From Octopus sinensis (lineage: Eukaryota), in NCBI RefSeq assembly GCF_006345805.1, contig NC_043025.1, positions 9,300,001 through 9,364,000 on the forward strand: a stretch of DNA of 64,000 nucleotides. The letters are read 5' to 3'. Positions 28,284 through 61,756 of this stretch are shown one piece after another. The number at the start of each line of letters is the position of its first letter. Positions within the stretch are counted from its first letter, which is position 1. A model generated the notes under the pieces. That model did no database searches, was not told the DNA's origin, and saw only the letters and a list, made by a program, of their open reading frames with translations. The position numbers were made by a program, and so were the translations under genes.

Positions 28284-28363
<80 letters not shown>

Positions 28364-29910
28364 CATACATACACACATAAATATATATATATATTTAATT
28401 TACACACACCACATATATATATATAGGAAATATTTACATATTTCATGTGATGTTTAGAGGGACTTTTCTCTTTCTGTGTTTTTAATTCTTGTATCTTCTT
28501 TTCTAGACGATATTTTTAATATTTTTATTGCTTTTCAGATCAATAAACAAAACGTGAACGGTGACACACCTCTACTTCTGGCTTGTCACAGGGGTAACAC
28601 AGAAGTCATTCAACAACTTCTCTTGTATAAACCTGATGTTAATCTGGAGAATAAACATAATAACACGCCGCTACACTGGGCCTGCAGTTGGGGATTTAAA
28701 GACATTGTTGAACAACACTTGCTGTTTGATGCCGACGTCAATAAGAAAGATATATATCACTACACCCCTCTACACTGGGCCTATGATAGTGGACATCTTG
28801 AAGTTGTTCAACAGCTCCTATGGTCGAGCAAGTGCTGTTCAAAAACTTCCTTAACTAAAGCTGATGTCAATGCTGTGGATTCAGACGCTGTTACAGCTCT
28901 ACATGTGGCCTGTGGACTTGGATACGAAAATATTATTAAAGAACTTCAAATACCTGAACTTAAAGTCAATGCGAAAGATATTAAATATGGTGACACACCT
29001 TTACACTGGGCCTGTCGCAGTGGACACAAACAAGCTGTTCAACAACTTCTGAAATCTAATCCTGATGTTAATCTAAGGAATATAGAGGGCAACACACCTC
29101 TACACCTGGCAGTTCTAAAGTAGGTTCCCTTGAATCTGGATTATCCAAATCTCTTTTATGTTTTCAAAGTTTTTCATTGATTCACTTTTGTCATTCTCCC
29201 ACCGTGGCTCGTCCGCCGACTTCTCTCTTTCACACTGCAATGACACTGTAATCTACTTCGTTAATTAATCATTACCATATATGCTGTTGTAGGTATCTGA
29301 CTAGATTCTTTACCTTATTTCATCCTCCGTTATCTCGATGTTACAGGTTCAAGTCCTGTCTGTTTTCATTTCACTCCATCGAAACCCCCCTCTTCCCCTC
29401 CCCCTCTTTCTCTTTCTCTCTCTCCCCCTCTCTCTCTCTCTTTTACTGTCCTTCTTTCCTCTGACCCTGGACTAAATACAGGATCGTCTCATTCCAATAT
29501 TTAGGTTTGTTTCTTTAGGATGACAGTTCAAATCCTGCCAGAGAATTTATTGTCACCCTAGGGTCGATACAATGTATTCCAGTAATATCTAGGGGTTCAG
29601 TTTGATTAACTGTTCCCCCTCTCTCCTGTTCTTATGTCTTAATAGTGTTGAACAAAATACCTTGCAGTATCTGAGGCCCTTTATATTCTGGGTTCAAATC
29701 CTGCTGACGTCAACTTGTCCTTTCATTCTTGCGAAGTTGATGAAAAGGCAATACCAGTTATGCTCTGAAGTCCATACAATAACTGTACCCTCTTCTCCAC
29801 CCCTAGATTTCAGACCTTGTACCTATGTAATAGTTGATCATTTGATCATTGTACTGTATATATGTATTTACTCAGGTGTATATATATATATACATATACA
29901 TACATACATA

Positions 29911-29959
<49 letters not shown>

Positions 29960-30204
29960 CAAGCTAAGGTTATAGAAGAAACAAATGCAAGGTCATCCAC
30001 ATAGCATTTCATAACACGAACATTTAAACATCACGGAATGTATATTCTATGATTAAATGTTCGAGTTATGAAATGTTATCTGGATGACCTTGCATTTGTT
30101 TGTTCAATAACCTTAGTTTGATATATTTCTCTCTTTCAATTGAGCACTTCTATAGCAGTCATATTAAACATTTTGTTCCTGATAGGAAACAATCACTGTA
30201 TTAT

Positions 30205-30280
<76 letters not shown>

Positions 30281-30587
30281 AATCTCTGAACGAGGTATAA
30301 ACAATAACTGCACGACAATGTGAGGTATATTTGCCATCTCAATATGGCTAACCACTAAGGGTGGGTGTTACTGTAGCCTGTAGCCCCAGGAGAACATCTC
30401 CTCCAGCTGGCTATAGGCACACTCTCTGTGCCCTATCGGTATTTGCAAAGGGAGGTCATCGTTCCCTCGTCAACCTAAGTGATACGCACGGACTGCAGTT
30501 TCTGGGTCTTCACCCGTCATCAGCGTACGACAATCACCGGTTTATATATGTATACCGCTGTTCAATTGTGGAGAGTATATTAACTGC

Positions 30588-30618
<31 letters not shown>

Positions 30619-33600: not shown

Positions 33601-36600
33601 TATAATTATGTTTATATGTTTGTTTTGTTTAGGTTTAGTTCTATCAGTACGTTATACTGTGGCTAGCATCTTGACCAAAGGCCATCCAGCAACAGTAAGA
33701 AGAACAATTAACAGAAAATGCTGTTGTTAGGGATCAAAGGACATCTATTTTCATTAACATGATTGGCTGTGTTGATAGCTATATACCTCACTGACTCCCT
33801 CATCTACGTCTCTCACATCCTCATTTTGAAGTTCTGGGACCACCAGGAATATGTAGTACTTAATAATGAAACGAATAAACACATTTTGAAATTGTTACTT
33901 GGAAGTAGCTAGAATTTATCTGTCTACCGACATTTTTTGTGTCTCCTCTGTCCAAATCAGTCACTTTCACATGGACAAGTGGACAAATTGTGAGAAGATG
34001 TAGAGCAATGATTTCTTCAGATACACCAAGAACAGCTACATCATCCATGGCAGATAACAGAGCTTTCTCTATAAACCTGGATTCAGCCATAACTAGAGAC
34101 AGGTTTGGAAGCAGTGTTTTCTGATATGATCCTTCATTGTGTGATCCGGTAAAGATTTTTGCTTTAATATATGTCATTTCGATGCTCAATTCAGAGATCA
34201 TTTATCGAATATCTGCAATTTCCTTATGGATGGGTTGTTTTGTTTGACAGTACTTGTTGGAAAAGACACACAGGTCAGGCAATAAAAGGACCACTTTGGT
34301 AGTTGGACCATTTCCTATATTCCATCCATCATAGAACCATTGTGTACCTTTTGTTGGACTGGGACCATCAGGCGGTTCGTGGTACATTTAAGGCAGATCA
34401 AAGCATGACATTTATTGCATTCAATACATCAATTCTCAAAAGATTTCTCTGGTTTTGTACATATATGTCAGACATGATTCTCAGGGTATTATTCTGTTTT
34501 ATGACTGTGACCTGTTTTGTTACATACTGTTCACTATACAAGGAGCCATGGCAGTTGTATCCTGTCTGTCCAACCATACAATTCAAAATTAAATGTCTAA
34601 ATATAGAGAACTTGTTAAACAGGTTAAGTTTTGTTCAGAAGAAATTAGTTCTCTACTAGAATTGAAAAATATTTCTGGAATGTATGGAGCAATTTTTGTG
34701 ATGTCCCAGAGTCAAGACACATATTTAACATGTATGTGAATGCTACACGAATATATGTAGCAGTCATACCACAAATCTGCATTTATGTAATTATTTAAAG
34801 AAAATACTTTTATGTACTCTTATTGGTCCTTGTAGTGTCTCATGATATTCTGTACTCTAAACATGTACTCAATGCGATATTTGTTATAAACTAATGTTAT
34901 CGGTGGGATGTGTTTATGTCTTGTTCCACAGATGTCTGCTGTGTGAAGTTAACGAACCTACAGTGAAGTTCCAACCATGTGGACACACCGTTACATGCAA
35001 AGATTGCTGTTTAAAAGTTCAGCGTAAAACTTGTCCAAAGTGTCAACAGATTATAGTTGAGAAAAGCGGATTCGGTAAGAATACAATTTGATGATCTGTC
35101 TGTTTGTCTCATTGACATTATGCTGTTGAATAATGTACTTCGTGTTACTATGTAGAGTCACACCTGTCATAAATGTAGCAGATTTATGATAAAAAGTTTT
35201 CCAGGTATCTTTCCTTATTGATACTTTATCAATCACCTCATTCACCAAACTTTGTCTTCATCCAAATACAAGGCTTGCCACTGTCTGCAAGATAAGACTA
35301 ATGAGGGATATTGCAAGTTAAACGGTGACTAATAGACATATTAATAAAACTCCAGAGTTCTTTCAGTAAATATCAAGTTTTTACAGTGTGGAGGTACATG
35401 GCCTAGTGGTTAGAGCAGCGGACTCGCGGTTAAGGGATCGCGCGTTCGAATCTCAGACCGGGCGATGTATGTGTTTATGAGCGAAACATCTAAGCTCTAC
35501 GCGGCTCCGGGAGAAGGGAATGGCGAAACTTCTGCTGGCTCTTTCGCCACAACTTTCTCTCACTCTTTCCTCCTGCATCTTGCAGCTCACCTGCGACGGA
35601 CTGGCGTCTCATCCAGGTGGAATACCTATACGCCAAGGAAACCGGGAAACCGGCCCTTATGAGCCAGACATTGCTCGAGAAGGAACAAACAAAGTTTTTA
35701 CAGTCAATTGTGAGTGACTAGAGGTAATTAGTAATTCATTATTTAACAGAGTGTAGTGGCTACTTTTAAAACGGCACCAATAACAATGAAGTCACAAACT
35801 AATTTGCAGAACAAGATCTCTCAACTGAGGTGGGGAGCAGAATTAAGGGACTGAATAAAAAGTTTTGCCTTAAGAGGGGAAATATGGCTGCTTCTGGTAG
35901 GGAGAGCAGAGAGAGAAAGACAGATAGAGAGTGACGGGGGAGTGATAGAGAGAGGGAGAGAGAGGAGTGATAAAGGGGAGAGAGAGGGATAGAAGAGTGA
36001 TAAAGAGGAGGGAGGGAGCAGTGATAAAGAGGAGTGAGAAAAGATGGGGAAGTATAAAGATGAGTGGAGTGGGGATCGGTGATGGGGTGTGGATGAATTT
36101 AGGAGGTTGCGAAAGGAGTATAATGAGTGGCAGAGGTAGAGGAGGGAAGGGATATTGTAAGGATAGGCTGTGGGGAATAGATTTAATGGGGACATATTGT
36201 GATAAACAGGGCTCACCAAGTAAATCGCCAATTGTCTTGATCCTTTGCCATTTCCTCTGTAAGGATCATTTCTCACCACTTTGCCCTACGCCTTTCCCGG
36301 GTTTCCCTGGTCCTTCCACATTTAGAGATCGGTACTTCTTTATGCGGCCGTCCTCATCCACCCACATCGCATAACCATACCAGTGCACATATCTGCTGCC
36401 GCTTACTCTTTTACTTGTTTCAGCCTTTTGACTGCGGCCATGCTGGAGCACCAACTTTAGTCGAAGAAATCGACCTCAGGACTTATTCTTTGTAAGCCTA
36501 GTACTTATTCTATCAGTCTCTTTTGCCGAACCGCTAAGTTACGGGGACGTAAACACACCAGCATCCGTTGTCAAGCGATGTTGGGGGGAACAAACACAGA

Positions 36601-39600
36601 CACACAAACATACACATACACACATATATATATATACATATATCCGACGGGCTTCTTTCAGTTTCCGTCTACCAAATCCACTCACAAGGCTTTGGTCGGC
36701 CCAAAGCTATAGTAGAAGTCACTTGCCCAAGATGCCACGCAGTGGGACTGAACCCGGAACCATGTGGTTCGTAAGCAAGCTACTTATCACAAAGTCACTC
36801 CTACGCCTATTTTAGCAACTTTTACTAAAATTTCCTAGTAACTAGATTTTCATCCTATTTAAAATCACCTCACTGATGTAAGGGACTTCGAGGGGTGGGA
36901 AATTTTGCTTGATATTTACATGAAATTTGATAGAGATAACCTCTATTCTTGAGTATCAGCTCTTCCGTAAACATTTCAGATATTTTCACTGCAACAATGC
37001 GTGGATGAACAGTTATAAGTGGTTGATGAGGTTTCGTGCATGTGTACTGAAGCGTTTTAAGCCACCCGTCATCATTTTCTGCTCCTAATGTTTAGAATTA
37101 TTAAGGGGGATGAATGATCTCCAAATGTCTTCGAGTATTTCTAGAATCAGAGAACATTCTGGTGAACTGTGATGTGGGGCAATTGAAATTAAAGATTACC
37201 ACCGGCAACATTTGACAAAGAGATCAGGTGTGTGTTTATCCTATATGAAGCAGCGTGCCACCTGTTTGTGGTTAGATCTTTGATGACCAACTTGGTTGAC
37301 ATTGGAATGAAGCAGAAAATGAGAAGAATGTTGGTTAATGAAGTCTAGAGGTGAGAGGACAATCACACATCATAGATTTGGAAAAGATATAACAAAAGAA
37401 AGGCAAAAGCAGGGTTATGAATTGGCGATGATTAAATGAGATGATCTGCATTGTTTGGATTATGAATAATGTCTTCGTAGAGATGAGGTTTAGGAAGGTC
37501 AGTTTATTTTGTGGTGGACGAAATATTCAGCGATCAGAGACTTGGAAATAGCTTGGTACTTCGAGTACGGTCAGTCAAAACCTCAACATACTGGCTGCCA
37601 GGGTTTGTTGGGATAGAATGCACATTATCTCGGGACCTTCCTTTCGATGGTTTTACAGAGTTCTGGCATCCTTCACTGATGCAAGACCCCCCGCCTATTT
37701 TTTCAACTGACTAGCACTGAACAGCAAGACCATTTCGGGATCATCATCTTTCCAACCAGGTTTTATCATTATTTTTCAGCCACATTCAATGGCTGGTCCT
37801 TTCAACTACAATCTGTATCTTCTTCAAGATAGTGTTTGCTTACCTATGTTAGACAACAATTGGTAGCAACCACCATCTCAGTCTGGTCCTCATAAAACCC
37901 TTACAATGAACTCAATCAGGGAATTGTCTACTGCACTCCAGCCAGTAGCTGTACAGTCTTCTATTAGTGTTTTATAACTCTCATCTTTCCCAACCTGGGC
38001 TGCATCTAAATCGCCTTCATGTGGAACAGTTAATTCAACAAGATGTATCAGCTTACATTCCTCACACCATATTGTTATCTCCAGCTTCTCCCTTGTTGCT
38101 ATTCAAAAGAGACATTCGCATCCGACAAGATCTGCTGCTCCCTCCCATTCTCATCCTCATTCACTTTTCACAGTATAGCAAATTATTAACAGAAATAACA
38201 AAATTATACTATAAAGAGAACTATTTACTTCAGGGACTCCAAAATCAGAGAACAAGGAAGTTCAGAAACCAGCACATCCTTCAGAAAGTAAAGTACTGCC
38301 AACTAGTGAGTATAAAATAACAGTACATAATTCATTTCTATAAACTTTACCTTCACCTGAGTTAGTTTGAGAACAGGTTCTGTTCCTAATTTCCTATAGA
38401 ATGGTTAGCTCTGAAATAATTCTATAATTCTATTAAAGGCATTGCTGAAATTTTGTAACATATCCACTGAGTTTAGATAAACAGGTTCTATTCCTAATTT
38501 CCTATAGAATGGTTAACTCTGAAAGAATTCTATTAAAGACATTGCTGAAATTTTGTAACATATCCACTGAGTTTAGATAAACAGGTTCTATTCCTAATTT
38601 CCTATAGAATAGTCAGCTCTGAAAGAATTCTATTAAAGACATTGATGAAATTTAGATAAATTAGTTTAGATAAATTAGTTGCCACAACAGAGTTAATATT
38701 GACTTTTGTTTGTCATTGGAGTTAAGCAGTAAATGAGAAGAATGTTGGTTAGTGAAGTTTAGAGACGAGAGGACGCCATGCCATTGGTTTGGCACATATA
38801 TAAGAAAGGAAAGACAAAAATAGAAAAGCAGTGTTATTAAGTGGTGATAATTAAATGAGATAATTCTTATATTGTAAGATTATGTAGAATATCTTACTAG
38901 AAAGAAGAGATTAAGGAAGGTTACTCTGTTTTGTTGTGATACCAATGTAGAAAGTATAAAAATGTTGACCAAAGCTATAGTGGTCACTAGTTAACCATTG
39001 ATGGTACTATAAATTGCAAAACTTTTAAATATTTATTTCAGAGTGTTCAAAGTTGGAGGCGAAGTGTCTCCAAGTAAGGGTAGAGAAGTCAAAGTGTGAA
39101 TGGCAGGAAGTTGGTGGGTATAAAATGACAGCACCTAATTCACTTCTATAAATTTTACCTTCACCTAAGTGTTTTTTTTTCTTATTTGTCAGATTGACTA
39201 AGATTCCTTTCCTAACTTCTTGAATGATTATCTGTAAATTAATAACGTTAACTAAATCACTGAATTCCTTACAATAACCATTAAGTTAGCAGTGGTAATA
39301 TGGATAAATTAGTTGAGGTAATAGAGTTAAAATTGTCTTTTGGAATAGGGAAGTAAAGCATGTTATTGTTTAGGAGTAAACGTGTGAGTTACTGACCATG
39401 TTTTTTTATATAAAGATTATTAACAGAGATAAAGAAATTTTACTATAAACTGTAAGACTTTTGAATAAACTTTTCAGAAAGTTCAACGCTGGAGGAAAAG
39501 CATCTTCTGAAAGTGGCTGAGAGCTGAGAAGGAAATGGTGGCACGTTGGTGAGTATAAAATAACTGAACCTAATTGCTTTCAGAAAATATTACTCTCGCC

Positions 39601-40293
39601 TGATCTAATGATGGAGAACCTGTTCCATTCCTCATTTTCACTTGAAAGATTAGCTTTAAAGTAACTCTATTAAACATGTCGAATTTATTGAAAATTCGTA
39701 AAATAACCACCGAGGTTAACACTTGATAATACGGATAATTTGGAAATATTCAATCGATTTAATATTATCATTTGGAACAAAGAAGCAAAATATGTTGTTG
39801 CTTCGGGGTAAACAGGTGAGTTAATGACAATGTCTTTGTTTGTTTTACATTTTTATTAAGTTTATTGATAGGCTGTTGTTTTTGTTATTGTTGCCGTAGT
39901 TCTTGCTAAAGCAGATATCTACTTTAATCTGGCAGACTTGAGATAAAAAGTGTTTCATGTATCTTAACCATTTTCTAATTTCTCTACTGGCAGAATTGCT
40001 TTGTTATAATTTATTACAACCTACAGAACACATCTTTTATTTTATTGCTGACGTTCTGGTAATTATTTCTTATTGTTGTATGTTTTTCAGGTAGGATTTT
40101 AGGAATTAAAAGTGTCCAGTTGGAAATTATCAAGCATGACAACCCTGGTAACACCGAAGTAAAGGGTTTCCAGACGCTCCGCAAATGGTTTACAGCCTGT
40201 GATCCTGAGAAACGCACATTGAAAACACTCAGAGATGCTCTTCTGGAAGCTGAGTGTTTTGAAGCACTCGAATGTCTACCGCAAACAGAGTGA
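24564..40293 (+). CDS. Gene A: Mind bomb-like ankyrin-repeat / C3HC4 RING / Death-domain protein (multi-exon)
   Basis: Phase-compatible GT-AG exons at 24564-24715, 26394-26550, 28539-29119, 30953-30989, 31955-32164, 33374-33549, 34932-35074, 38234-38305, 39042-39113, 39478-39548 (1 bp short) and 40091-40293. Most are independently supported by the inverted paralog. Start codon unresolved. Confidence 0.85.
24827..25370. mobile_element. Two adjacent family D SINEs in opposite orientation (24827-25035 -, 25046-25370 +)
   Basis: Mutually reverse-complementary bodies lying within an intron of gene A. Confidence 0.75.
26394..26550 (+). CDS. Gene A ankyrin exon 2
   Basis: ttcag|[52 protein letters not shown]|gttag; phase 2 to phase 0. 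Confidence 0.85.
26611..26911 (-). mobile_element. tRNA-derived SINE, family B
   Basis: Reverse complement homolog of 23636-23934. Confidence 0.85.
27572..27800 (+). mobile_element. SINE family C
   Basis: GGCGGCGAGCTGGCAGA..GAGTTCAAATTCC head; ends AATAAAGAAA before (TA)n. Confidence 0.8.
27828..28064 (-). mobile_element. Degenerate Penelope-like GIY-YIG endonuclease fragment
   Basis: [37 protein letters not shown] resembles the PLE motif L.G.C....VIYKA.V..YIG.TE..FK.R.NNHK.SF. Confidence 0.55.
28093..28278 (+). mobile_element. Penelope-like terminal repeat fragment between (TA)n runs, with degenerate hammerhead-like motif
   Basis: Contains CTTTCTGTAGAAGAGCGTAGGCACGAAACGTAAAA; a second copy lies at 15168-15340. 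Confidence 0.5.
28539..29119 (+). CDS. Gene A multi-ankyrin exon 3 (about 6 repeats)
   Basis: ttttcag|[35 protein letters not shown]|gtagg; positional counterpart of the giant exon of gene B. Confidence 0.9.
29955..30126. mobile_element. Foldback/MITE-like palindrome 3
   Basis: About 70-bp inverted arms (TATATCAAGCTAAGGTTAT..TGCAAGGTCATCCA..AACATTTAA / TTAAATGTT..TGGATGACCTTGCA..ATAACCTTAGTTTGATATA). Confidence 0.78.
30485..30529 (-). ncRNA. Minimal type I hammerhead ribozyme (in a Penelope-like repeat, about 30280-30545)
   Basis: Minus strand reads CGUACG-CUGAUGA-C-GGGU-GAAG-ACCC-A-GAAAC-UGCA-GUC-CGUGCG: intact core, 6-bp stem I, stem II, palindromic stem III and a GUC cleavage site. Confidence 0.8.
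30953..30989 (+). CDS. Gene A 37-bp exon ([12 protein letters not shown])
   Basis: tttcag|...|gttagt; same-length paralog at 58300-58336. Confidence 0.8.
31102..31387 (+). mobile_element. tRNA-derived SINE, family A (followed by a related body with another tail to about 31625)
   Basis: A-box TGGCCCAGTGG and B-box TTCGATTCC; inverted near-identical copy at 42990-43296. Confidence 0.85.
31955..32164 (+). CDS. Gene A ankyrin exon ([13 protein letters not shown])
   Basis: 210 bp, [25 protein letters not shown] donor; paralog at 55512-55721. Confidence 0.88.
33374..33549 (+). CDS. Gene A last ankyrin exon (Mind bomb-type pre-RING segment)
   Basis: [58 protein letters not shown]; paralog at 54045-54223. 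Confidence 0.85.
34932..35074 (+). CDS. Gene A RING finger exon (C3HC4)
   Basis: [41 protein letters not shown]; cag| acceptor and |gtaag donor. Confidence 0.92.
35390..35693 (+). mobile_element. tRNA-derived SINE, family B
   Basis: Homolog of 23636-23934. Confidence 0.85.
36402..36803 (-). mobile_element. SINE family E
   Basis: Homolog of 17110-17613. Adjacent 36260-36400 is an RTE-like C-terminal scrap ([12 protein letters not shown]). Confidence 0.78.
38234..38305 (+). CDS. Gene A 72-bp phase-1 cassette exon, copy 1 (linker-like)
   Basis: ttcag|[24 protein letters not shown]|gtgagt; the downstream intron is homologous to those after copies 2 and 3. Confidence 0.65.
38372..38660. repeat. 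About 100-bp intronic tandem repeat (about 3 copies)
   Basis: AACAGGTTCT.TTCCTAATTTCCTATAGAAT recurs at about 38372, 38480 and 38580. Confidence 0.85.
39042..39113 (+). CDS. Gene A 72-bp cassette exon, copy 2 (diverged Death-domain start)
   Basis: ttcag|[23 protein letters not shown]|gtggg. Confidence 0.65.
39478..39548 (+). CDS. Gene A cassette exon, copy 3 (Death-domain start; 71 bp, 1-bp deletion near 39522)
   Basis: ttcag|[22 protein letters not shown]|gtgagt; best match to the intact 72-bp exon of gene B. Confidence 0.7.
40091..40293 (+). CDS. Gene A terminal exon, Death domain
   Basis: [59 protein letters not shown]; matches the W..LG..L..I..NP..L..W..T...L..AL Death-domain pattern. 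Confidence 0.85.
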
Positions 40294-47754: not shown

Positions 47755-50260
47755 CTGCAAAACATACAACAATAAGAAATAATTGCAACAACATCAACAA
47801 TAAAATAAAAGACGTGTTCTGTAGTTTGTAATAAATTATAACAAAGAAATTATATCAGTTGAGAAATTTTAACAATAATTAAGAAACATGAATAATATAA
47901 GACAGTGTTCTCAATTTCTCAGAATCGTGATTAAAAGTTAACAAAGAAGTTGAAATAAAAGATAAAGATGGAGAAGAAATTAAAGGAAATTAATTGAAAA
48001 TTACTCTTGAGAAAATTTATGGTAAACAGATGGCAGGAAAATGGTTTGCATAGGCAAAAGTGTCACCAACTTTGACACCATTTCATCCATCGTTGCATTT
48101 TCTCTGCCTTCTATTCCTGGGAGGGTATTCAGGCCCCTCCTTCATAGGCTCCTATCAAAAGCAATTATCATTAGTCTTCGTGGCAAGATTCCCAAGTATA
48201 ACCAAGAGAGACTATTTTTTTTTGTTCCTTCTCGAGCCATGCCTGGCTCATAAGAGCCGGTTTCCCGGTTTCTTGACGTATAGGTTCCCCACCTGGACGG
48301 AACGCCGTTCCATCGCAGGTGAGCTGCTGCAAGATGCAGGAGGAAAGAGTGAGAGAAAGTTGTGGCGAAAGTTTCAGCAGAATTTTCGCCATTACCCTCT
48401 GCCGGAGCCGCTTGGAGATTAGAGGTTTTCGCTCATAAACACACACATCGCCTGGTCTGAGATTCGAACCCGCGATCCCTCGACCGCTCTAACCACTAGT
48501 CCATGTGCCTCCACAACAGAGACTATGGATATTATCCAACCATCTCATTCTTGATCTGCTGCTAAGTCTTCTGCCATTTGGTTCAGCTTGAAGAATCCAT
48601 CTTGCAGTTCTTTCCTGCAACATTCTAATCTGATATCTGTAGAAGCAGAACTGTAGAGATTTAGTCGCTCAACCTGAAGAGACTTCCAGATCTCTGCGTT
48701 GTGTGCATCTTTTGAGCAACCTAACACCAGAGACCCTTTAGAGGAATCCCATTTCGGCTGCTTGGTCTCATCACATGATCAACACCTGAAATAGTCATCA
48801 GTGCTTCTACTCCTACTCTCACTAAATAGTAATTACAACACATCAACCAATTAATATACAAATAGATATGATACGAGAATGATTTCAACTACGCAGAGTA
48901 CAAAATATACGTTATATATTTTGGAAGACACCAGATTAACCGTTCTGGGTTCATGATTCGTAATAAGTATTTCTTTTACTGGAACAATGCCACAATTTAG
49001 AGAGAAGTCGATAATGGAGAGGTTTTAGAGTAAAGCTGGCAAAGAGAAGAGTTTTAGTTTTGTAGGAAAGAAGACAGAAGTCACCATCATCTACACCATA
49101 CACATGCAGACGCTTAGGGCCTGAAGGAATCACTGCATCTACCAACATCTCCATCATCTGGGAAGTTATCATATTTGATAAGCAGGAAGGTAGAAGGGGT
49201 TAATGGGGATTCTAAACTGTGTACTCAATGCACACAATAAGTAATGTGAGGTCAGAGGTAGGTTGATGGAGAGGAAGGTGTTTGTGAGTAGTAGATATAC
49301 AGGAATATTTAGTTGTAAGAACAACTGTGAAAGGCATGGACGACAGTTTCTGTTACCTAGGTGACATAGTTAGGAGTGGAGGAGACTATTCTGAAAGCAA
49401 TGGGATTAGAGAAAAAATGAGGTGGCAAACTGTGCGGGGAGCTGTTTGTTATCCTTGCTGACAAATAAAATGTCACACAAACTGCCCACTCTTGGGTTAA
49501 CGACGTTGCATTTGATAATGTGGTCCTCTTCTCCTAAGGGAAAGAATGATGTCACACCTGGAACACTTTTCTTCTGACGACGTCTGCCAGATTAAGGCAG
49601 ATATCTGCATCAACAACAACAACAACCTACCAGTGAACTTAGTAAAAATCTAAAGAAACAAAATCATTGACATTAACTCATCTGTTTGTACATAAACAAC
49701 AACATATTTTAGATCCCTACTTTAAAAGAGAATATTAAATCTTTTGTGTCTTCTAATTAATCCATTGTACCAACCATGTAAACTCGATTTTATGAAGTTT
49801 CTTTCATAGAATTACTTAACAGCTAAACTTTCAATTGGAAATTAAAAGAATGGAAACTGTTCTCAATCATTCTAACAAACAAAAGCTTAAGGGAAGGCAA
49901 AATTTATAAAAATCAATTAGGCATTATATACTCACCAACTTCTCGCCATTTACTCCCTAACTTATTTGCAACCTTTTGAATATGTATCTCCTTCAATTTT
50001 AGGGACACTGAAATAAATAGTTCCAACTTTTATGCATCATGCTATAATTTATTTATATATAAAAGAATTTATTTGTCTCTATTAAAATATCATCGATAAT
50101 CATATAATGTAGAAATTATCACATTTAATTATCACTTGATAACACTGTTCTTAGTTTTATCTTTCCTTTCTTATATCTGTGCCAAATCAATGGCATGGCA
50201 TTTTCCTCACATCTCTACACTTCACTAACCAACATTCTTCTCATTTTCTGCTTAATTCAA

Positions 50261-50293
<33 letters not shown>

Positions 50294-53200
50294 ATGATGG
50301 TGATAGAACTTTCTTCGACGGTCAAAAGGCTTCAGTGACAGAAACAGTGTGTCTGATGTTATTGTTAATATAAGAACAAATTTACAAGGAATATGTAACC
50401 CTACCCACACCCCATTCCTCCACCACTATTATACCACACTTGTCAATAATGCTAATTATAATGAGATAATAAATTAATGTCATTATTAGACTTTAGAAAT
50501 TATATCTAATTAGTATCGCATAAATATAAACAAATATTTCACTTTTTGTTCCATGTGAAATCATGTCAAGACACAATCACATCTGGACATTACTGGACTA
50601 TAAGGGTCAATGACCCCAGTTTGTAGGGATGCGGTACTGGACCCAAATAAAACAAAATATTTACATGGAATAAACTGTTAGGTGAGCGAACAAGGTGGCG
50701 TTATGACAAAATAAGGTTACGTTTCAGACATACAATTGTAAGACTATCAATCAATAATAGCTAATTAATTATCATGTTAATGAGGTATACGGCTAGTACA
50801 GTAGCACATTGCCTGGCATTGCAATACTTGATATCTATAGAGATTGTATATAACATGTCAAAAGGATATCTAACCATCGTTATAATGATATCTATATAGA
50901 TTATATATAATCTGAGTGAGGGATACGTGACTCCCATTATAATGTTATCTATAGATTATATATAACCTGACAAAGGGATATCTGACCATCGTTATAGTGA
51001 TATTTATATAGACTTTATATACCTTGACAAAGGGATATTTGACCATCATTATAATGATATCTATATAGATTATATATATTCTGACTGAGGGATACGTGAC
51101 TCCCATTATAATGTTATCTATAGATTATATATAACCTGACAAAGGGATATCTGACCATCGTTATAATGATATCTATATAGATTTTATATACCCTGACAAA
51201 GGGATATTTGACCATCATTATAATGATATCTATATAGATTATATATAATCTGACTGAGGGATACGTAACTCCTATTATAATGTTATCTATAGATTATATA
51301 TAACCTGACAAAGGGATATCTGACCATCGTTATAGTGATATCTATATAGATTTTATATACATTGACAAAGGGATATTTGACCATCATTATAATGATATAT
51401 ATATAGATTATATATAATCTGACTGAGGGATACGTGACTCCCATTATAATGTTATCTATAGATTATATATAACCTGACAAAGGGATATCTGACCATCGTT
51501 ATAATGATATCTATATAGATTTTATATACCCTGACAAAGGGATATCTGACCATCGTTATAATGATATCAATACAGATTGTATATAAGCTGAGAAAAGGGG
51601 TATGTAATTATCATTATAAAGATATCTCTATAGATTGTGAGGTGTGTGGCTTAATGTTTAGGGCATTCGGCTCATGGCAATAAGGTCGTAATTTCAATTC
51701 TTGGCGGTATGTCATGTCCTTGAGCAAGACACTATATTCCACACTCCTCGCCTCCACTCAGCTGACAAAAATGAGTCCTACCAGTTATTGAAAGGGTTGG
51801 CCTTTTCACATTCTGTGTTATGATGAATCCCCCTGAGTATTAGATTAAGGGTTCATATATCTGTGGAGTACTCAGCCACTTTCACGTTACTTTCATGAGC
51901 AGCCTGTTTCCTTGATTAGCAAACTGGATCTCTCATCCTCCTAACCGATGGAGTGCCAGTTTTCTATATAGATTGTATCTGAGAACAGTTGATATTATAG
52001 TAGTTCCATGAGCAATCACAGAAAAATGGTACCAGGGCCAGTACCAAATACTTACAATAATTTCTTTCACCAGTCAAATAACAACGACCAGGTTCCAAGA
52101 TTCAATTTAAACGTAAGAACGGAAATAAAACCAACAGTTAAAAAACACAGAAAAGTGTGTTTGTATTAACATTAATATAATCTAAAAACCAATAAGAATG
52201 AGTATAAATATGGATGGAAAGTGTTATTCAAATCATGTAGCAAGTGTTGATTATATATGGTTACAAATAAGGAGTTGTGTGTTCAAATCACATTAGGAAT
52301 TCCTATTCTATTCCTCTTTGTATATTTTATACGTGAACATAAATACTTTGTTTATATGTAAACATATGTTCACAGTTCATTACAGTCAAGACATTCAGTG
52401 AAATTAATTTAACGATCAATTCTCTTAGGATTAATATTGTAATTTTTTTAATTTATCACAACAATATATGTCCTAACCTGAGACATTCCGGGTACGTACC
52501 CTAACAAGAGATGACATCTCAGATCAAACAGTGGACTAATATTATTGTTTAGCATTTTCATAACATGATAAATTATGAAGAATTTCTGGAGGATAACTTT
52601 GCAAAATATGTTGAAACTATCGATGCCATCTTTCACCAAATAAACATTCACAGCAACACAAAACAATTCATTAAGCAACACAATTCATTAAGCAAAACAA
52701 TTAATTAAGCAATCAAAGCCTCTAATGTTGTTCTTTAATCGCTCAGTTGAGATTTTCTCATTGAATCTTCTATTTTACCAAAAATCATTCTGATGTTCTT
52801 GTAAGTAACATTGTCTTTTATCAGATACTGATAAATCATTAAGCCCTCTAATCACTCACAATTGACTGTAAAAAACATGATATTTACTGAGGGAATCTGG
52901 CAGCTATTAATATTTCTGTTAGTCGCCGTTTAACTTGCAGTATCACTCATTAGTCTTATCTTGCAAACAGTATCCTCTTGAAGTGAAGCAAACCTTGTAT
53001 TGGACGAAGACGAAGTTTGGTGGATGAGGTGATTGATAAAGTATCACAAAGAGAAAAGACACTTTTATCATAAATCTGCTACATTTATGACAGGTGTGAC
53101 TCTACATAGTAACATGAAGTATATTATTCAACAGCATAAAGTCAATGAGAAAACAGACAGATCATCAAATAGTATTTTACCGAATCCACGTTTGTCAACT

Positions 53201-56200
53201 ATAACTTGTTGACACTTGGGACAATTTTTAGGCTCATTTCTGAACAGCAATCTTTACATGTAACAGTGTGCTCACATGGTTGAAACGTCACTGTAGCTTC
53301 ACTAGATTTACACAGCAGACATCTGTTGAACAAAACATAGAGGCATAACACTGATGATATTCATTTATAACAAATATTGCATTGAGTACATGTTTAGAGT
53401 ACAGATTATTACGAGATACTACAAGAACCAGCAAAAGTACAACAAAAAATCTTTTTTAAATAATTACATAAATGCAAATGATATCTGTACAAAACCCTAG
53501 AACCCTTTTGAAAATTCATGAGTTGAATGCAGTAAAAGTCATGCTTCTATCTGCCTTCAATGCACAAGTAATCTCTTGATGATCCCAGTCCAAGAAAAAG
53601 GTAAAAAATGGTTCTATGATGGATGGAATATAGGAAATGGCCCAACCCACAATTTCAGTGCCTGACCTGTGTGTCTTTTCCAACTATTGCTGTCAAACAA
53701 AAGCAGTCCATCCACAAGGAAATTACGGATAGTCGATGAGGGATTTCCGAATTGAGCATCGAAATTGCAGATATTAAAGCAAAAATCAGAGGTATTCGAT
53801 TAATGAATGAAATATGGCGACTGTTCTCTATTGCAGGAGGCCAATAGGCACTTCTGGTTTGTGATTAGTGTGAAAAAGATGATGAAACGATGTGTGTAAA
53901 AGATGATGAAAAGATGATGTGGTCTTTGGTCAAAACACAGAATAACGTATTGGGAGAATTAAAACTAAACAAAACATATGAACATAATTGTGTACAAAAT
54001 AGAAAATTCTCTGCTTAGTCTTGTCATTGTTAGAGAATACTTACAATGGTGGTGGGAAAAGTGCTTTAATTTTTTCCTTTAAATTTGTATCGTTGATAAG
54101 ATCCAGCGGCATCACATTCCATACGTTTCTGTGGTAAAAGTTGGCTCCATTGTCGGCCAGAAAACAAGCCACTGCTAGGCTTGAAAGCTTGCCTCCTTTG
54201 CTAAGCTGGAGCTTTTTGTAGTACTACAAATGATGAAATATAAAAAGGACGAGTACAATAGTACACAAATACAAACAAAATCATAACATCAAGTCAAATA
54301 CAAGAAATATAATGGAACAAATATCACAATAATAAAATACCTATCTATGCAAGTGGCTTGATGAAGGCAACTGGACACAGCAACAGAAATACTTTGGGAA
54401 GAATATTGTGTATATTAATACAACCCCTGTCAGCATAGACGATTGGCATTAAATGATGATGATGATGACGATGATGATGATGATAAGGGTGATGGTGGTG
54501 GTTGTGATGGTGATGATCGCGACGATGAGGACGATGATGATGATGAACACAACAAGATAACAAAACATATATGTTATATCAGAAACAACAAAGAACACCT
54601 AAGACATAGCAATTTCTTCAGATGTAACAAAACCAACACCACACAGACTTATCCAAATATATCAACAATGTTTCCATAATTATTAAAGAAACATCTTTGG
54701 GTGATGAAGGTGAAGTAAAAGAAGTAAGAATTGGTGTCACGGTTGAGGCAACACACCAACACATTATATTTGATAAACTGTGGAAACTGTTAGTCTGACA
54801 GACAATTCCAGCAATGGAGGGAGAAGGGCATTTGACTGCCAGGAGATTTTTTTACCAAAGTGGACATTACCACAACACAAAGATGACCATCAAATGTCTG
54901 AAATACAGTCACACATCTGTAGAGACCGTTACTCATGTGGGAATCAGTGAGTTGCTCTAAGTGCGCAAAATTTAACAGTAAATACTGTTAAATCTACTGA
55001 TGGTTAGATGTTGATGTATTTGTATTTTCACACACATACACACACACGCATACACACACACACAAACACACACACACTCACACACACACACACACATGTA
55101 TGTGAGTGAAAGTAAGTGAACAAATGAGAGAGGGGCACTCAACCAATTCATTGGAAGTTACATGTATGGATCAAAACAGTTTGGATCATTAAACTATTTG
55201 ATCCATATATATATATATATATGTATGTATGTACGTACGTATGTATGTATATTGCTTTATTGTATCCAATCTCTAGTGTTCTAACATTCAATATTGTTAT
55301 GACATGTCCACATGAAGCCAGAGGATAAATATTGTGTACAAGAAGTAAGACAGGGAGCTGTTTTTTCAGAATCCCTCATAGAATGGAATGGATGTATTTA
55401 TCATGGCACTTGCATTCTAAAGGTTGCCATCATGTCTCTCTGTTTCTCTTTCTATCTCTTATAAATAAATCCACACGTATATATATATTTACAAATAATT
55501 CTAAAACTTACCTTATCCAAGACAGTTAAGGATTCATCCTCAGAATGGAACTCCTTTTTCCTCACCGCAAGGTGAAGACAATTGTTTCCGATATTATCGA
55601 CCACATTTACGTCTGCTCCTTTAGAAATGAATTCCTGCATTATTCTGAAGTTGCCGCAAGAGACAGCTTGAAGAAATGGTGTTATACCATCCCAGTTTGT
55701 TATGTTCAATTTCACTGAATCCTTTGTCGAAGTAAAAAGAGAGAATGAAAATTTACATGAAAACCAGGGTGGCTATCAATGTGTCATTACTGCCTTCTAC
55801 TGGGTACTTGATCAAACCGATCGTGTACATTTCATGTTTGTCAGTGAAGTTAGCCTTGCATAAGGTCCCTCTATAACTTACTATGAGTGTGTTTAAGAGA
55901 CATGATACATCTATTAAGATGTAATAAACAGATTGGTTCAGTCTAATCTACGTTTATCCCTCACTGAAGTAAAATTTAGGGTAGTTCAAATGGACCGAAC
56001 ACAAGATTAGCAGGTTAAGTTTAATAAAGAAGACCTTTAGGACTTGCGTATAATTTTGATGTTACTAAATTAATAAGGGGTTCATAAAATTTATGTCAAA
56101 GCAAAATCGAACGCACAAACATGGAGTGTGTGTCGTTAAGTTCTTCGGCTGGTTGCATTTTTAGGTGTGAGAGAATATATTCTCAATGTGTCTGGTGGTG

Positions 56201-58214: not shown

Positions 58215-58863
58215 AAAGATAATTTTTTGTGATATATTTGTGTTAATTTCATAATAATCTTGTACACATTTCGTATAATCTAGTCATTAAAAAACTAACC
58301 TGGGATAGCATCAACGTGACTACATCATAGCTTTGTCTGAAAGTTATTCAAAGAAGAAAGAAAAATATTAAAAAATACGAAAATCATAGAGGTTGAGATA
58401 ATTAATATTTGTTAGGTATTTAATTAATGAAAACAGATTTAATGAGCTACCTACAACCTGTTTACATCAATAATTATATAGACACACATAAATATAATCG
58501 ATATATACACTCTAACCAGTTGATTAATCATATATATATACATCTGAATAAACACCACAATGTGTTCTATGGTACAACGAACAACAAGTTGACCTCAGCA
58601 GGATTTGAACTCAGGATACAAAGGGTCGTAAATAAATAACACAAGGTATTGTATCCAGCAGTATCCAGAAACAGGAAGAGGTTAGAATCCTTGAATATTA
58701 CTGTTTGATATTAAATGAACCCTTAGATATTACTGGTATAGATTATATCGACTCTGGAATTATTTCAGCTTGGAACATAAACAGTAAATACTTGTAGGGG
58801 ATGATTCTGTATTTAACCCTGGGTCAGAGGAAAGAGGGACATTACAAGACAGGAAGAGAGAGA

Positions 58864-58902: not shown

Positions 58903-61756
58903 GAAGTATGGTGTTTTATGTGGAGTAAAAGTAAGAGAGAGGATTTGAACATGTGATGTTGTGGTAATGGAGAATGAGATGAAGTGAAAGATCTAGTCAG
59001 GGACAACAACAACAACAACAAAAACAACTACAACAACAACAGCAAGAACAACAATAACAATAAATATGGCGGTGATTACTGAATAAAGTAGATGGTAGTG
59101 TCATTACAGTAAGAGAGAGAAAGAAGAAGAAGGATGACCCATGATGCTGACTCACCTTAGAACTGCCTGATGGAGTAGTGTGTTACCAGATTTATCTCTT
59201 TTATAGTAATCAATGCTCGGATGCTGCAGTAAGAGATTAACTGTATCCGTGTGTCCCTTGTCCCAGGCCTGGTGGAGTGGTGTGTACCCATTGGTAGCCT
59301 CAGTGTTTACATCAATAGCAGGGTGCTTCAGTAAATGCTTAACTGTATCTGTGTGTCCCTTGTTACAGGCCTGGTGGAGTGGTGTGCTGATTGCTATCCT
59401 TAGCATTTACATCAATAGCAGAGTGCTGCAGTAGATGCTTAACTGTCTCCGTGAGTCCCTCGGCACAGGCCTGGTGGAGTGGTGTGTGCCCTTTTTTATT
59501 CACAGCATTTACATCAATAGCAGAGAGCTGCAGTAGATGCTTAACTGTCTCCGTGTGTCCCTCGGCACAGGCCTGGTGGAGTGGTGTGTGCCCTTTTTTA
59601 TTCACAGCATTTACGTCAATATCAGAGTGCTGCAGTAGATGCTTAACTGTCTCCGTGTGTCCCTCGGCACAGGCCTGGTGGAGTGGTGTGTGCCCTTTTT
59701 TATTCACAGCATTTACGTCAATATCAGAGTGCTGCAGTAGATGCTTAACTGTATCTGTGTGTCCCTTGTCACAGGCCTGGTGGAGTGGTGTGCACTGATC
59801 TATATCCTTAGCATTTACATTAATATCAGAGTGCTGCAGTAGATGTTTAACTGTCTCCGTGTGTCCCTTGACACAGGCCCGGTGTAGTGGTGTGTACTGT
59901 TTATTGTCCTTAGCATTTACATCAATATCAGAGTGCTGCAGTAGATGTTTAACTGTATCCGTGTATCCCATGCCACAGGCCCATTGTAGTTCTGTGCACT
60001 GATCACAATCCTCAACATTTACTTCATTATCAGAGTGATGCAGTAAGAGATTAACTATCTCCGTGTGTCCCATGCCCCTTGCCCGGTGTAGTGGTGTGTC
60101 CTGATTGCTATCCTTAGCATTTACATCAATATCAGAATGCTGCAGTAGATGCTTAACTGTCTCCGTGTGTCCCCTGAGACAAGCCCAGTGTAGGGCTGTG
60201 ATCCTATTGGTCGCCATAGCATTTACATTAATATCAGAGTGCTGCAGTAGATGTTTAACTGTCTCCGTGTATCCCTCGTCCCAAGCCAGGTGTAGTGGTG
60301 TGTACTTATCGTTCTTCTTAGCATTCACATTAATATCAGAGTGCTGCAGTAGATGTTTAACTGTCTCCGTGTGTCCCCTGAGGCAAGCCCAGTGTAGGGG
60401 TGTGACCCAATAGTTGTCCTTAGCATTTACATCAATATCAGAATGCTGCAATAGATGTTTAACTGTCTCCGTGTATCCCTCGACACAGGCCCAGTGTAGT
60501 GGTGTGTACTGATTGCTATCTTTAGAATTTACCTCAATATCAGAGTGCTGCAGTAGATGTTTAACTGTCTCCGTGTATCCCTCGACACAGGCCCAGTGTA
60601 GTGGTGTGGCCCCATAGTCATCCCTAGCCTTTACATCAATATCAGTGTGCTGCAGTAGATGTTTAACTGTCTCCGTGTGTCCCTCGACAGAGGCCCGGTG
60701 TAGTGGTGTGTACTGATTGTTATCCTTAGCATTTACATCAATATCAGAGTGCTGCAGTAGATGTTTAACTGTCTCCGTGCGTCGATCCCAACAAGCCAAG
60801 TGAAGGGGTGTGTTCTGACATCTATCCTTAGCATTTACATCAATAGCATGGTGCTGCAGTAGATGTTGAGCTGTTTCTGTGTGTCCCTTGACACAGGTCA
60901 GGTGTAGTGGTGTGTTCTGATCGCTATCCTTAGCATTTACATCAATATCAGGGTGCTGCAGTAGATGTTTAACTGTCTCCGTGTATCCCTTGACACAGGC
61001 CAGGTGTAGTGGTGTGTTCTGATCGCTATCCTTAGCATTTACATTAATAACAAACTGCTGCAGTAGATGTTTAACTGTCTCCGTGTGTCCCTCGACAGAG
61101 GCCCTGTGTAGTGGTGTGTACTGATTTCTATCCTTAGCATTTACATCAATAGCAGAGTGCTTCAGTAGATGTTTAACTGTTTCTGTGTGTCCCGTGACAC
61201 AGGCCCGGTGTAGTGGTGAGTACTGACCGCTATCCTTGGCATTTACATCAATATCAGAGTGCTGCAGTAGATGTTTAACTGTCTCCGTGTATCCCTCGAC
61301 ACAGGCCCAGTGTAGTGGTGTGTACTGATTGTTATCCTTAGCATTTACATTAATATCAATCTGCTGCAGTAGATGTTTAACTGTCTCCGTGTGTCCCTTG
61401 ACACAGGCCAGGTGTAGTGGTGTGTTCTGATCGCTATCCTTAGCATTTACATTAATAACAAACTGCTGCAGTAGATGTTTAACTGTCTCCGTGTATCCCT
61501 TGTCACAGGCCGGGTGTAGTGGTGTGCACTGATCGCTATCCTTAGCATTTACATCAATATCAGAGTGCTGCAGTAGATGTTTAGCTGTCTCTTCGTGTCC
61601 CTTGACATAGGCCAGGTGTAGTGGTGTGTACAGATCGTTATTCGGAGCATTTACATCAATGTCAGGCTGCTGCAACAGATGTTCAGCAATTTCTGTGTGT
61701 CCGAGAGCACAGGCCAGATGTAGTAGTGTGTCACCATCTCTATTTTGTTGATTTAT
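47552..61756 (-). CDS. Gene B: paralogous ankyrin / RING / Death-domain protein with a 25-repeat ankyrin exon (two frameshifts; possible pseudogene or assembly errors)
   Basis: Exons 61756-59156, 58336-58300, 55721-55512, 54223-54045, 53322-53181, 50007-49936 and 47754-47552 have the same phases as in gene A. There is a 2-bp deletion near 59386 and a 1-bp deletion near 53244. Confidence 0.85.
48221..48512 (-). mobile_element. tRNA-derived SINE, family B
   Basis: Homolog of the other family B copies. Confidence 0.85.
49936..50007 (-). CDS. Gene B 72-bp Death-domain start exon
   Basis: ttcag|SLKLKEIHIQKVANKLGSKWREV|gtgagt. Confidence 0.82.
50830..51636. repeat. Minisatellite of 55-57-bp monomers in a 169-bp trimeric higher-order repeat
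   Basis: The GGGATACGT variant recurs at 50920, 51089, 51258 and 51427, interleaved with GGGATATCTGACC and GGGATATTTGACC monomers. Confidence 0.92.
51640..51958 (+). mobile_element. SINE family D (full length, old)
   Basis: tRNA-like head GTGGCTTAATG..TTCAATTC, GTCCTTGAGCAAGACAC core-like segment, family D tail. Confidence 0.7.
53181..53322 (-). CDS. Gene B RING exon (1-bp deletion)
   Basis: [26 protein letters not shown]/..CPKCQQVIVDKRGF; 142 bp versus 143 bp in gene A. Confidence 0.85.
54045..54223 (-). CDS. Gene B last ankyrin exon
   Basis: YYKKLQLSKGGKLSSLAVACFLADNGANFYHRNVWNVMPLDLIND.., resembling the Mind bomb A.ACFLA..GA....N....PLDL segment. Confidence 0.85.
55512..55721 (-). CDS. 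Gene B ankyrin exon
   Basis: DSVKLNITNWDGITPFLQAVSCG..NCLHLAVRKKEFHSEDESLTVLDK|gtaagt. Confidence 0.88.
57140..57660 (+). mobile_element. Old R4/Dong-like RT fragment
   Basis: YRYLGVDENI..YYSCIKTIWTSELSAFNKTVAHNVFAVPVL aligns by eye with the thumb region of the LINE at 6976-10198. Confidence 0.7.
58300..58336 (-). CDS. Gene B 37-bp exon (QSYDVVTLMLSQ)
   Basis: tttcag|...|gttagt; paralog of 30953-30989. Confidence 0.8.
59156..61756 (-). CDS. Gene B giant exon: 25 tandem 102-bp (34-aa) ankyrin repeats plus a partial 26th
   Basis: Consensus VNAKDxxQxTPLHxACxxGHTETVKHLLQHSDID. Expected length 25x102+53=2603 versus 2601 observed, matching the 2-bp deletion near 59386. Confidence 0.93.

Follow-up and report, generated by a model that had tools for sequence, protein, structure and literature searches.

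Among the closest described systems are the high-internal-conservation (HIC) ANK, TPR and WD40 repeats of fungal NLRs (Podospora), in which near-identical units evolve in concert, the inner helix and hairpin of the ANK units carry hypervariable positions, and exchange of repeats has been proposed to give new binding interfaces (PMC4986451, PMC13449251). The combination of conserved repeats, a hypervariable binding face and repeat exchange is known in fungal NLR ankyrins and has been noted in other taxa, and recombination as such is the usual behaviour of homogenised coding tandem arrays. PMC13449251 also describes exon-shuffled LRR/TPR receptors of brown algae and ANK mini-exon splicing of truffles as repeat-level diversification of candidate immune receptors. 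Mind bomb proteins (MIB1/MIB2) are E3 ligases, and in MIB2 catalysis depends on the second RING (PMC7815719).

The window, the whole 64,000-nucleotide stretch analysed, contains a Mind-bomb-like ANK-RING-Death paralog of Octopus sinensis, here called gene B. Its seven exons are the following:

59156..61756, minus strand: array exon with 25 ankyrin units, each of 102 nt or 34 aa, and a partial 26th, starting in phase 0 and ending in phase 2
58300..58336, minus strand: 37-nt exon closing the last array repeat, matching the N-terminal part of O. vulgaris CAJ1099198.1
55512..55721, minus strand: ankyrin exon with an AAG acceptor
54045..54223, minus strand: exon between the ankyrins and the RING, its counterpart in paralog P0123 aligning to MIB1 ANK chain 8V0E in the C-terminal part of that chain
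53181..53322, minus strand: exon of the RING (zf-C3HC4_3), its frame shifted by 1 nt within an A run near 53238
49936..50007, minus strand: exon in which the Death domain begins, 96% to P0123
47552..47754, minus strand: final exon, coding for the Death domain (PF00531, E 2e-6), with 100% identity to O. sinensis XP_036370695.1

As in Mind bomb, ANK repeats are followed by a zf-C3HC4_3 RING. Unlike Mind bomb, which has nine ANK repeats and two C-terminal RINGs, gene B has about 28 or more repeats, and a single RING followed by a Death domain is present in gene B, P0122 and P0123. The N-terminal MIB and ZZ zinc-finger domains, which bind substrates in Mind bomb, were not found in the window: 89 of the 93 plus-strand ORFs upstream of the array-type exon of the neighbouring gene A gave no Pfam match (ORFs of at least 45 aa, low-complexity filtered; short exons could escape), and the Pfam scan of 117 ORFs gave only four transposon domains. 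Also NACHT/NB-ARC ATPase domains were not found in the seven gene B exons and these 117 ORFs, the 5' end of gene B being beyond the window or missing.

The octopus array appears to follow the HIC regime known from fungal NLRs, set in another protein architecture. It shares with the fungal ANK repeats the alike tandem units, the exchange between them and the variable binding face, while its flanking domains are RING and Death. The mean identity of 68% at the amino acid level (units 2–23) and 83% at the DNA level (units 2–24) is lower than the HIC cut-off of at least 85% amino acid identity across at least 100 aa between repeats. Like the DARPin and ANK-N5C libraries, the array has a constant scaffold with variable repeat positions 2, 3, 5, 10 and 13 (PMC4308713); unlike these, it is natural, has 34-aa units and 25 repeats per chain, owes its diversity to mutation and recombination, and has a binding face that is predicted. 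It differs from the brown-algal and truffle systems in having all repeats in one exon, with neither a repeat-per-exon layout nor alternative splicing. We give a probability of roughly 0.7 to the reading that the mosaic of the array was produced by germ-line unequal crossover and short conversion with breakpoints anywhere, with diversifying selection likely on the predicted binding face.

The array exon (2.6 kb, 61756–59156) has an AG acceptor and a GT donor. TRF found a tandem repeat of period 102 with 24.6 copies (59222–61731), and the Pfam Ank profile matched the array with E 1e-183, with 23 Ank stretches in its open part. The units were numbered from the first TxLH at 61729, which agrees with the numbering of the earlier note. 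The array is bounded by two diverged units:

61628..61729, minus strand: unit 1, the 5' terminal unit, with 24–36 differences from units 2–24
59182..59283, minus strand: unit 25, the 3' terminal unit, with 29–40 differences from units 2–24

Unit 25 has rare patches in common with units 15 and 17. Units 17 and 18 are degenerate. Similarity was biased towards neighbours in units 2–24 (rho 0.21, p = 0.005) and not significantly so in units 2–19 (p = 0.25), so the signal stems from the 3' block. Cassette copies of the ankyrin unit were not found in the rest of the 64-kb window.

A comparison within the window is given by gene A:

24564..40293, plus strand: gene A, tail-to-tail paralog of gene B, with ANK, RING and Death-like exons of 62–83% nucleotide identity to those of gene B
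28539..29119, plus strand: counterpart of the array exon, with the same intron phases and only five full and one partial divergent ankyrin repeats

The repeats of this exon are 40–45% identical to the gene B array in amino acids. Relative to it, the gene B exon has swollen from about 5 to 25 repeats.

All the motif pairings on which the earlier note based its claim of reassorting turn and helix modules were recovered. NNQY precedes WACVE in unit 5 and RASVE in unit 11, WACVE also follows DYGA (unit 12) and SNQY (unit 13), and WACLR follows NYWV (unit 14) and TNRI (unit 16). ATN is found before units 16 and 25 and AWD in units 15 and 25, QQFVIN-SDQN-LACVK is seen twice (units 3–4 and 7–8), and KKGH-QACAE is present in units 21–23. 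These examples are of unequal weight: the repetition of units 3–4 in 7–8 and that of units 20–23 are copies of whole units and not swaps of halves. The copied tracts are located as follows, the ends of the first three being approximate:

61394..61495, minus strand: identical tract of 101 nt from unit 3 codon 11 to unit 4 codon 10
60986..61087, minus strand: its partner in units 7–8, four units downstream
59456..59752, minus strand: recent tandem triplication of KKGH-QACAE in units 20–23, with a longest identical run of 124 nt at one-unit offset
60404..60625, minus strand: units 12–13, the clearest sub-repeat mosaic, with helices equal to the unit 5 helix

Only units 20–23 are near-identical, 3–15 nt apart. 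The runs identical to unit 5 cover 75 nt in unit 12 and 64 nt in unit 13, and the DYGA turn before unit 12 is closest to the NYWV turn before unit 14.

Such a pattern could also be formed by duplication of whole units with no exchange below that scale, if the motifs were remade by recurrent point mutation, with selection acting on a few codons. Several of the listed pairings are separated by just 1–3 nt, NNQY and SNQY by a single base, and some recombination tests were weak. The PHI test, proposed in the earlier note, gave a mixed result: in our own implementation p < 0.05 was reached in 9 of 36 tests, and in none of the 16 in the turn-start register. NSS was significant in one of nine tests, and the overall four-gamete fraction did not exceed that of a clonal null (P = 0.07–0.17). 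This null consisted of 400 simulations without recombination on the ML tree with site-specific rates, all array statistics being taken from one haploid consensus. Against duplication alone, the clonal simulations failed on the correlations between segments and on the decay of LD. The null was rejected for helix against turn, helix against scaffold and LD decay: the correlation between a helix and the following turn was −0.01 (0.45 in the null, P = 0.005), and the near-minus-far difference in LD was 0.064 (0.00 in the null, P = 0.0025). Linkage falls off within about 25 nt, and pairs that include a synonymous site show the decay as well, from 0.128 to 0.050 (p = 0.002 by permutation). Furthermore, multi-base patches are common to distant units, such as 17 and 25.

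Separate trees of the turn and helix halves, the comparison suggested in the earlier note, were incongruent. ILD-type incongruence was detected in all four partition pairs (P = 0.007–0.033) and in both pairs analyzed after removal of near-identical copies (P = 0.02 and 0.03). With the rejection of the clonal null, this supports the exchange of segments shorter than a repeat within a single exon, through unequal crossover or conversion. Duplication without such exchange is largely refuted and very improbable. As in HIC sensors, the array shows concerted evolution with exchange between repeats, the PHI results remaining mixed. The identical runs of 124 and 101 nt and the divergence of the two terminal units likewise speak for such exchange.

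In the version of the earlier note, turn and helix halves are separate modules, and the conserved TPLH and scaffold blocks are the preferred sites of their exchange. The two halves of the turn correlate with each other (r = 0.60), as do those of the helix (r = 0.40), turn and helix were incongruent in the ILD-type test (P = 0.033 and 0.020), and the identity run of units 5 and 12 begins at the junction of turn and TPLH. At distances of 13–24 nt, r2 was 0.13 inside the helix and 0.07 across TPLH, a small hint of modules that carries no significance value. The linkage of turn and helix across TPLH is, however, partly retained (r = 0.27–0.29; clonal null not rejected by the Mantel test, P = 0.07) and is the strongest among the helix–turn and helix–scaffold pairs. 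Also the scaffold reassorts, being as incongruent with helix and turn as these are with each other. A conversion model with uniform breakpoints and a mean tract of 60 nt placed all 12 observed statistics within the 0.09–0.95 quantiles, so the specific TPLH mechanism is not needed; the within-turn correlation, at the 0.95 quantile of this best uniform model, still leans towards modules. Conversion tracts of 15 nt and of 250–500 nt failed several of the 12 statistics. Since breakpoints inside invariant blocks cannot be localised, they seem to fall there by construction. As a special mechanism, the swapping of fixed halves through TPLH was not upheld, and we regard it as improbable.

The most variable codons of the unit were 31, 34, 8, 32, 5 and 9, which correspond to consensus positions 2, 5, 13, 3, 10 and 14. 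Five of these six are randomised binding-surface positions (PMC4308713). At the six DARPin codons, a set defined externally yet applied after the entropy table was seen, pN was 0.435 and pS 0.130 (pN/pS about 3.3; neutral-coalescent P = 0.002–0.014), which agrees with a concentration of variation at predicted binding-face codons. The excess of replacement changes lies in the codons of the turn and helix 1. By this ratio the array shares with HIC sensors the diversifying selection on the concave face, with two further tests not significant: a tree-free minimum-step test for excess replacements (P = 0.054–0.28) and a post hoc top-7 replacement statistic (P = 0.07–0.18). The core of the array is under purifying selection (core codons pN/pS 0.36), and no stop codons were present among 106 distinct alleles (P = 0.03). 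The outer helix and loop had a pN/pS of 1.02 and singletons outside the surface codons were close to neutral (22 N to 6 S), consistent with relaxed constraint.

Two mutational explanations of the variable codons were rejected. The fixed wobble bases of the variable codons had suggested A-specific mutagenesis (DGR-like or retro-copied A-to-I editing), but the spectrum was flat (A>G 13, A>T 12, C>T 11, G>A 11, T>C 10). The other, a local hot spot of mutation, does not fit the third-position diversity, which does not differ between the variable codons and the rest (0.155 in surface codons, 0.152 in others).

As assembled, gene B contains two frameshifts and is therefore recently broken or mis-assembled. 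One is in the RING exon, which is in frame in P0122, P0123, P0124 and gene A, and the other, absent from the remarks of the earlier note, is in the array:

59363..59385, minus strand: deletion of 2 nt from a short CA run where unit 24 begins (about 59384), causing a frameshift with a stop at 59365–59363

Units 24–25 are readable only by bridging this deletion. Short simple runs are a typical context of long-read errors, and both frameshifts lie in such runs (CA, A). This, together with the intact RING exon of the three close homologues, would fit an assembly in which the mosaic and the triplication are partly artefacts of haplotype switching or polishing in a tandem repeat. Errors of this kind would not yield the structure by codon position and site class, and 23 successive units without indel or stop, on average 17.6 nt apart, also speak against them; we hold this explanation to be very unlikely.

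The two frameshifts could instead mean that gene B is a decaying paralog in which the array expanded like a minisatellite, the mosaic being real and without present function. The near-neutral singletons and outer-helix codons and the degenerate units 17–18 agree with this, and no annotated protein containing the array was present among the listed protein matches. The low core pN/pS, the lack of internal stops and the replacement excess specific to the surface point the other way, as do the AG/GT sites and compatible phases kept in all seven exons. Even if the gene is broken now, the array was under coding selection until recently. Decay is on the whole unlikely, though it has more in its favour than the other alternatives.

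Homologues of 438–1395 aa reached at best 46% identity to the array, and those below 438 aa 50%, each among 120 matches listed; among the best 150 representatives, which alone covered proteins longer than 1395 aa, the top identity was 48%. Ankyrin matches crowd these lists, and the absence of a close homologue is therefore weak evidence. Alleles or orthologs were not found among the listed matches, the exact sequences of the array and the gene A exon were absent from the protein collection searched, and gene B is represented in protein databases by its C-terminal exons only. The Ank profile and the predicted solenoid fold identify the array as an ankyrin repeat protein, the best AlphaFold model having a pLDDT of 90 and the other four 71, 41, 34 and 32. 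Foldseek matched the predicted fold to DARPins and ankyrins, with DARPins at the top; MIB1 ANK 8V0E had the highest TMq (0.90) among the listed matches, the top Atlas cluster was mib1-like (0.94), and NCBI labels close homologues 'MIB2-like'.

Of 49 fetched proteins with at least eight evenly spaced repeats, a sample biased towards the top matches of a repeat query, 15 had at least 60% internal identity, mostly with the same variable positions. Helix and following turn were uncorrelated in 7 of the 10 other arrays tested. Arrays such as B. belcheri Bbelb_286140 (ANK and Death) and P0061 resemble the octopus array in internal conservation, but are independent expansions with at most 48% identity to it, and a Mind-bomb origin has been shown for none. 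Somatic shuffling of the array, as in receptors of the V(D)J or VLR type, found no support and is given next to no credence; RSS heptamers and nonamers were not found in 58.6–62.3 kb.

Under germ-line exchange with breakpoints anywhere, one 34-aa repeat would have been amplified inside the exon after the split of genes A and B. Misaligned exchange would then homogenise the units and copy patches of 30–120 nt between them, new neighbourhoods of turn and helix variants arising as a by-product of spacing, with no dedicated junctions. Such shuffling may create combinatorial specificities. The gene B protein would join a variable binder to RING and Death domains, and would most plausibly act inside the cell in immune or cell-death signalling, as a sensor or adaptor. 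A natural DARPin library is a bolder and rather doubtful extension: an intact, expressed Mind-bomb-derived receptor, with a 25-repeat face continually re-dealt by recombination within the exon and differing between individuals, would need no NLR ATPase to link the binding of pathogens with ubiquitination or Death-domain signalling.

Less ordinary is the setting of the array in a cephalopod paralog of Mind-bomb-like ANK-RING-Death architecture, and no description of such an array gene was found in the literature searched. If gene B is intact and polymorphic, octopus would have in it a concrete candidate for an intracellular immune receptor of variable type, and the positions that evolution varies in ankyrin repeats could be read from a natural test.

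The ankyrin array of gene B, the minus-strand ANK-RING-Death gene, lies in a single exon of 2601 nt bounded by an AG acceptor and a GT donor. The array has a period of 102 nt and includes 25 units of the 34-aa ankyrin repeat together with one partial unit. DNA identity among units 2–24 is 83%, and units 1 and 25 have diverged further. AlphaFold predicted a regular ankyrin solenoid for units 4–11 (pLDDT 90 in the best model, at most 71 in the remaining four), which in a structure search matched DARPins and the ankyrin domain of MIB1.

61756-59156, minus strand: array exon of gene B
Start of unit 24, minus strand: frameshift 1, loss of 2 nt from a short CA run, leading to a stop at 59365-59363

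Shuffling below the scale of the unit is, for the most part, real. An earlier note had proposed that turn and helix halves reassort through the TPLH and scaffold blocks, and every motif pairing it listed was found, with identical numbering. Some of these pairings are weak, NNQY and SNQY differing by one base, and the matches between units 3-4 and 7-8 (101 nt) and among units 20-23 (124 nt) are whole-unit copies, not half swaps. The clearest mosaic involves a helix exactly common to units 5, 12 and 13; the turn before unit 12 is nearest to that before unit 14, and the helix of unit 14 is nearest to that of unit 16.

Correlations of segment distance matrices over 21 units were r = 0.60 between halves of the turn, 0.40 between halves of the helix, 0.29 between the turn and the next helix across TPLH, -0.02 between the helix and the following turn, and 0.07 between the helix and the adjacent scaffold. 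The clonal null, comprising 400 recombination-free simulations along the ML tree at fitted per-site rates, was rejected for helix and turn (P = 0.005), helix and scaffold (P = 0.0075) and near-minus-far LD (P = 0.0025), also when units 7, 8, 21 and 22 were left out. It stood for turn and helix across TPLH (P = 0.07) and for the four-gamete fraction. The decay of LD was retained in pairs including one of the seven synonymous informative sites (p = 0.002), and protein epistasis is therefore disfavoured as its cause.

The separate segment trees proved incongruent in ILD-type tests based on FastTree topologies and Fitch scoring (turn|helix P = 0.033, helix|turn 0.007, helix|scaffold 0.033, scaffold|turn 0.007; 0.020 and 0.030 after removal of near-identical copies), the ILD being a liberal test. 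The PHI test gave a mixed answer, with significant p-values in 9 of 36 settings and in none within the turn-start register, and NSS was significant in just one of nine settings.

Exchange by halves specifically was not required, as uniform conversion tracts suffice. In a neutral forward model with uniformly placed tracts and site mutation rates fitted to column diversity, a mean tract of 60 nt reproduced 12 of 12 statistics (quantiles 0.09–0.95, 300 runs); mean tracts of 30 and 120 nt failed one or two statistics, and those of 15 and 250–500 nt several. The modular look of turn and helix comes from their being the two clusters of variable sites, which invariant blocks keep apart. A small residual signal may favour true modules: r2 at 13–24 nt was 0.13 for pairs inside the helix against 0.07 for pairs across TPLH, over a baseline of 0.05, and the within-turn correlation sits at the upper edge of the uniform-tract model, although that model accounts for all the statistics without modules. 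The observation of the earlier note was confirmed and its interpretation partly supported.

The six most variable codons, 31, 34, 8, 32, 5 and 9, correspond to ankyrin consensus positions 2, 5, 13, 3, 10 and 14, their placement on the binding face resting on alignment to the published consensus and not on model coordinates. The classical randomised set of DARPins comprises positions 2, 3, 5, 13, 14 and 33. For this set, applied after the entropies were known, pN was 0.435 against a whole-unit pS of 0.130 (P = 0.002–0.014 in neutral coalescent simulations; 0.013–0.045 against local pS). Third-position diversity was equal inside and outside the codons of the set, whereas their first and second positions were about four times as diverse as elsewhere. 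Positions 2, 3, 5, 10, 13 and 33, randomised and shown to form the binding surface in PMC4308713, gave a raw pN/pS ratio of 3.43. Neither the tree-free minimum-step test for replacement excess (P = 0.054–0.28) nor the post hoc top-7 statistic (P = 0.07–0.18) was significant. By class, pN/pS was 0.36 in the core and 1.02 in the outer helix and loop. No stops occurred among the 106 alleles (P = 0.03), and singletons were near neutral.

According to PMC4986451, internal conservation is high (HIC) in fungal NLR ankyrin arrays, the number of repeats is polymorphic, inner helices and hairpins are under positive selection, shuffling would alter binding interfaces, and such repeats form 0.8% of metazoan ANK, TPR and WD repeats. 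PMC13449251 adds HIC repeats from animals, plants and bacteria, and it describes the exchange of repeats from one gene to another. Eight or more regularly spaced repeats were present in 49 of the 391 proteins examined, 15 of these 49 with internal identity of at least 60% and mostly with the same variable positions as the octopus array. In a comparison of raw correlations, 7 of 10 other arrays likewise showed none between the helix and the turn after it. The gene B array resembles HIC sensor arrays in its mode of working, a likeness that does not make gene B an NLR. In the search listings on octopus or cephalopod ankyrins, Mind bomb/MIB2, gene conversion and the Death domain, and on invertebrate repeat shuffling, no entry concerned gene B.

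The rest of gene B and its inverted paralog, gene A, are placed as follows.

58336-58300, 55721-55512, 54223-54045, 53322-53181, 50007-49936 and 47754-47552, minus strand: gene B exons downstream of the array
RING exon of gene B, minus strand: frameshift 2, 1 nt in an A run, absent from the MIB2-like homologs
24564-40293 (24.5-40.3 kb), plus strand: gene A, tail to tail with gene B (47552-61756, minus)
49172-49080, 47755-47555 and 41147-40698, minus strand: pieces matched by XP_036370695.1

The six downstream exons have compatible phases, AG acceptors (6/6) and, in the five internal ones, GT donors (5/5), and code for further ankyrin repeats, a RING of the zf-C3HC4_3 type and a Death domain. 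Identity of the Death exon to O. sinensis XP_036370695.1 is 100%, and two other pieces of the window match that protein at 99–100%, which places the window in O. sinensis; this RefSeq model (‘SCAN domain-containing 3-like’) is an apparent annotation chimera of that exon and a transposase-like ORF. The ‘MIB2-like’ ANK-RING-Death homologs CAJ1099199.1 and CAJ1099198.1 (O. vulgaris) and XP_036370845.1 (O. sinensis, the third close paralog) cover the exons downstream of the array only.

Atlas and PDB searches tied the C-terminal part of gene B to Mind bomb. MIB2 combines MIB and zinc-finger domains at its N-terminus with nine ankyrins and two RINGs, the second of which is catalytic (PMC7815719), whereas gene B has a single RING plus a Death domain; the window yielded no N-terminal MIB domain. 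Gene B is Mind-bomb derived and not itself a Mind bomb.

Intron homology between the inverted duplicates is 62–83%. The array-exon equivalent of gene A (28539-29119) has identical splice phases and similar ends and contains just five full divergent repeats, 40–45% identical to the array, which therefore appears to be a within-exon expansion postdating the split. In an O. vulgaris homolog (P0122), the ankyrin exon 55721-55512 looks nearer to the third paralog (P0123), with 89% identity to gene B, and later exons (to 47754-47552) are 97–98% identical to gene B, a pattern possibly reflecting exchange between paralogs. In gene A, moreover, the intron and exon segment preceding the Death exon is present several times (37300-39960, plus), with two candidate exons of equal size, one near 38233 and the other near 39480; a tandem repeat of 100 bp lies at 38426-38653.

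Elsewhere, a long-ORF chain at 994-5641 (plus) is interrupted by in-frame stops and shifts; none of its seven ORFs matched Pfam, the first is similar to NHL beta-propeller clusters of molluscs (Atlas, 0.93), and the chain looks like a decayed multi-propeller gene. An intronic 57-bp minisatellite of 14 copies lies at 50829-51636 (higher-order 169-bp period at 93%). A 455-bp direct repeat (45861-46315 and 46651-47105, 99% identity) between the 3' ends of genes A and B is either a recent duplication or an assembly duplicate. Retroelement remnants at 8176-9994, 11256-12611 and 63175-64000 include RT (PF00078), RNase H and integrase fragments; 63.2-64 kb is LINE-fragment-like by eye, without Pfam match. 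An inverted pair upstream of genes A and B (22742-23530 and 62126-62893, 81% identical, without Pfam match) is a repeat element or else belongs to the duplicated segment.

In the most likely mechanism, misaligned germ-line exchange would have amplified one repeat and would continue to copy patches of 30–120 nt between units, while selection would have preserved the core and promoted amino-acid replacement on the concave face. Turn and helix variants would be reassorted as a by-product of their spacing. The two frameshifts may be long-read errors in a living copy, both lying within simple runs prone to such error; recent decay also fits, given two such hits and the near-neutral singletons. That gene B is an intact, polymorphic natural-DARPin receptor is rather doubtful, with roughly one chance in four. 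An intact product would carry a RING and a Death domain alongside a long variable binder. Judging from domain content and analogy, it would most plausibly serve immune or cell-death signalling as a sensor or adaptor.
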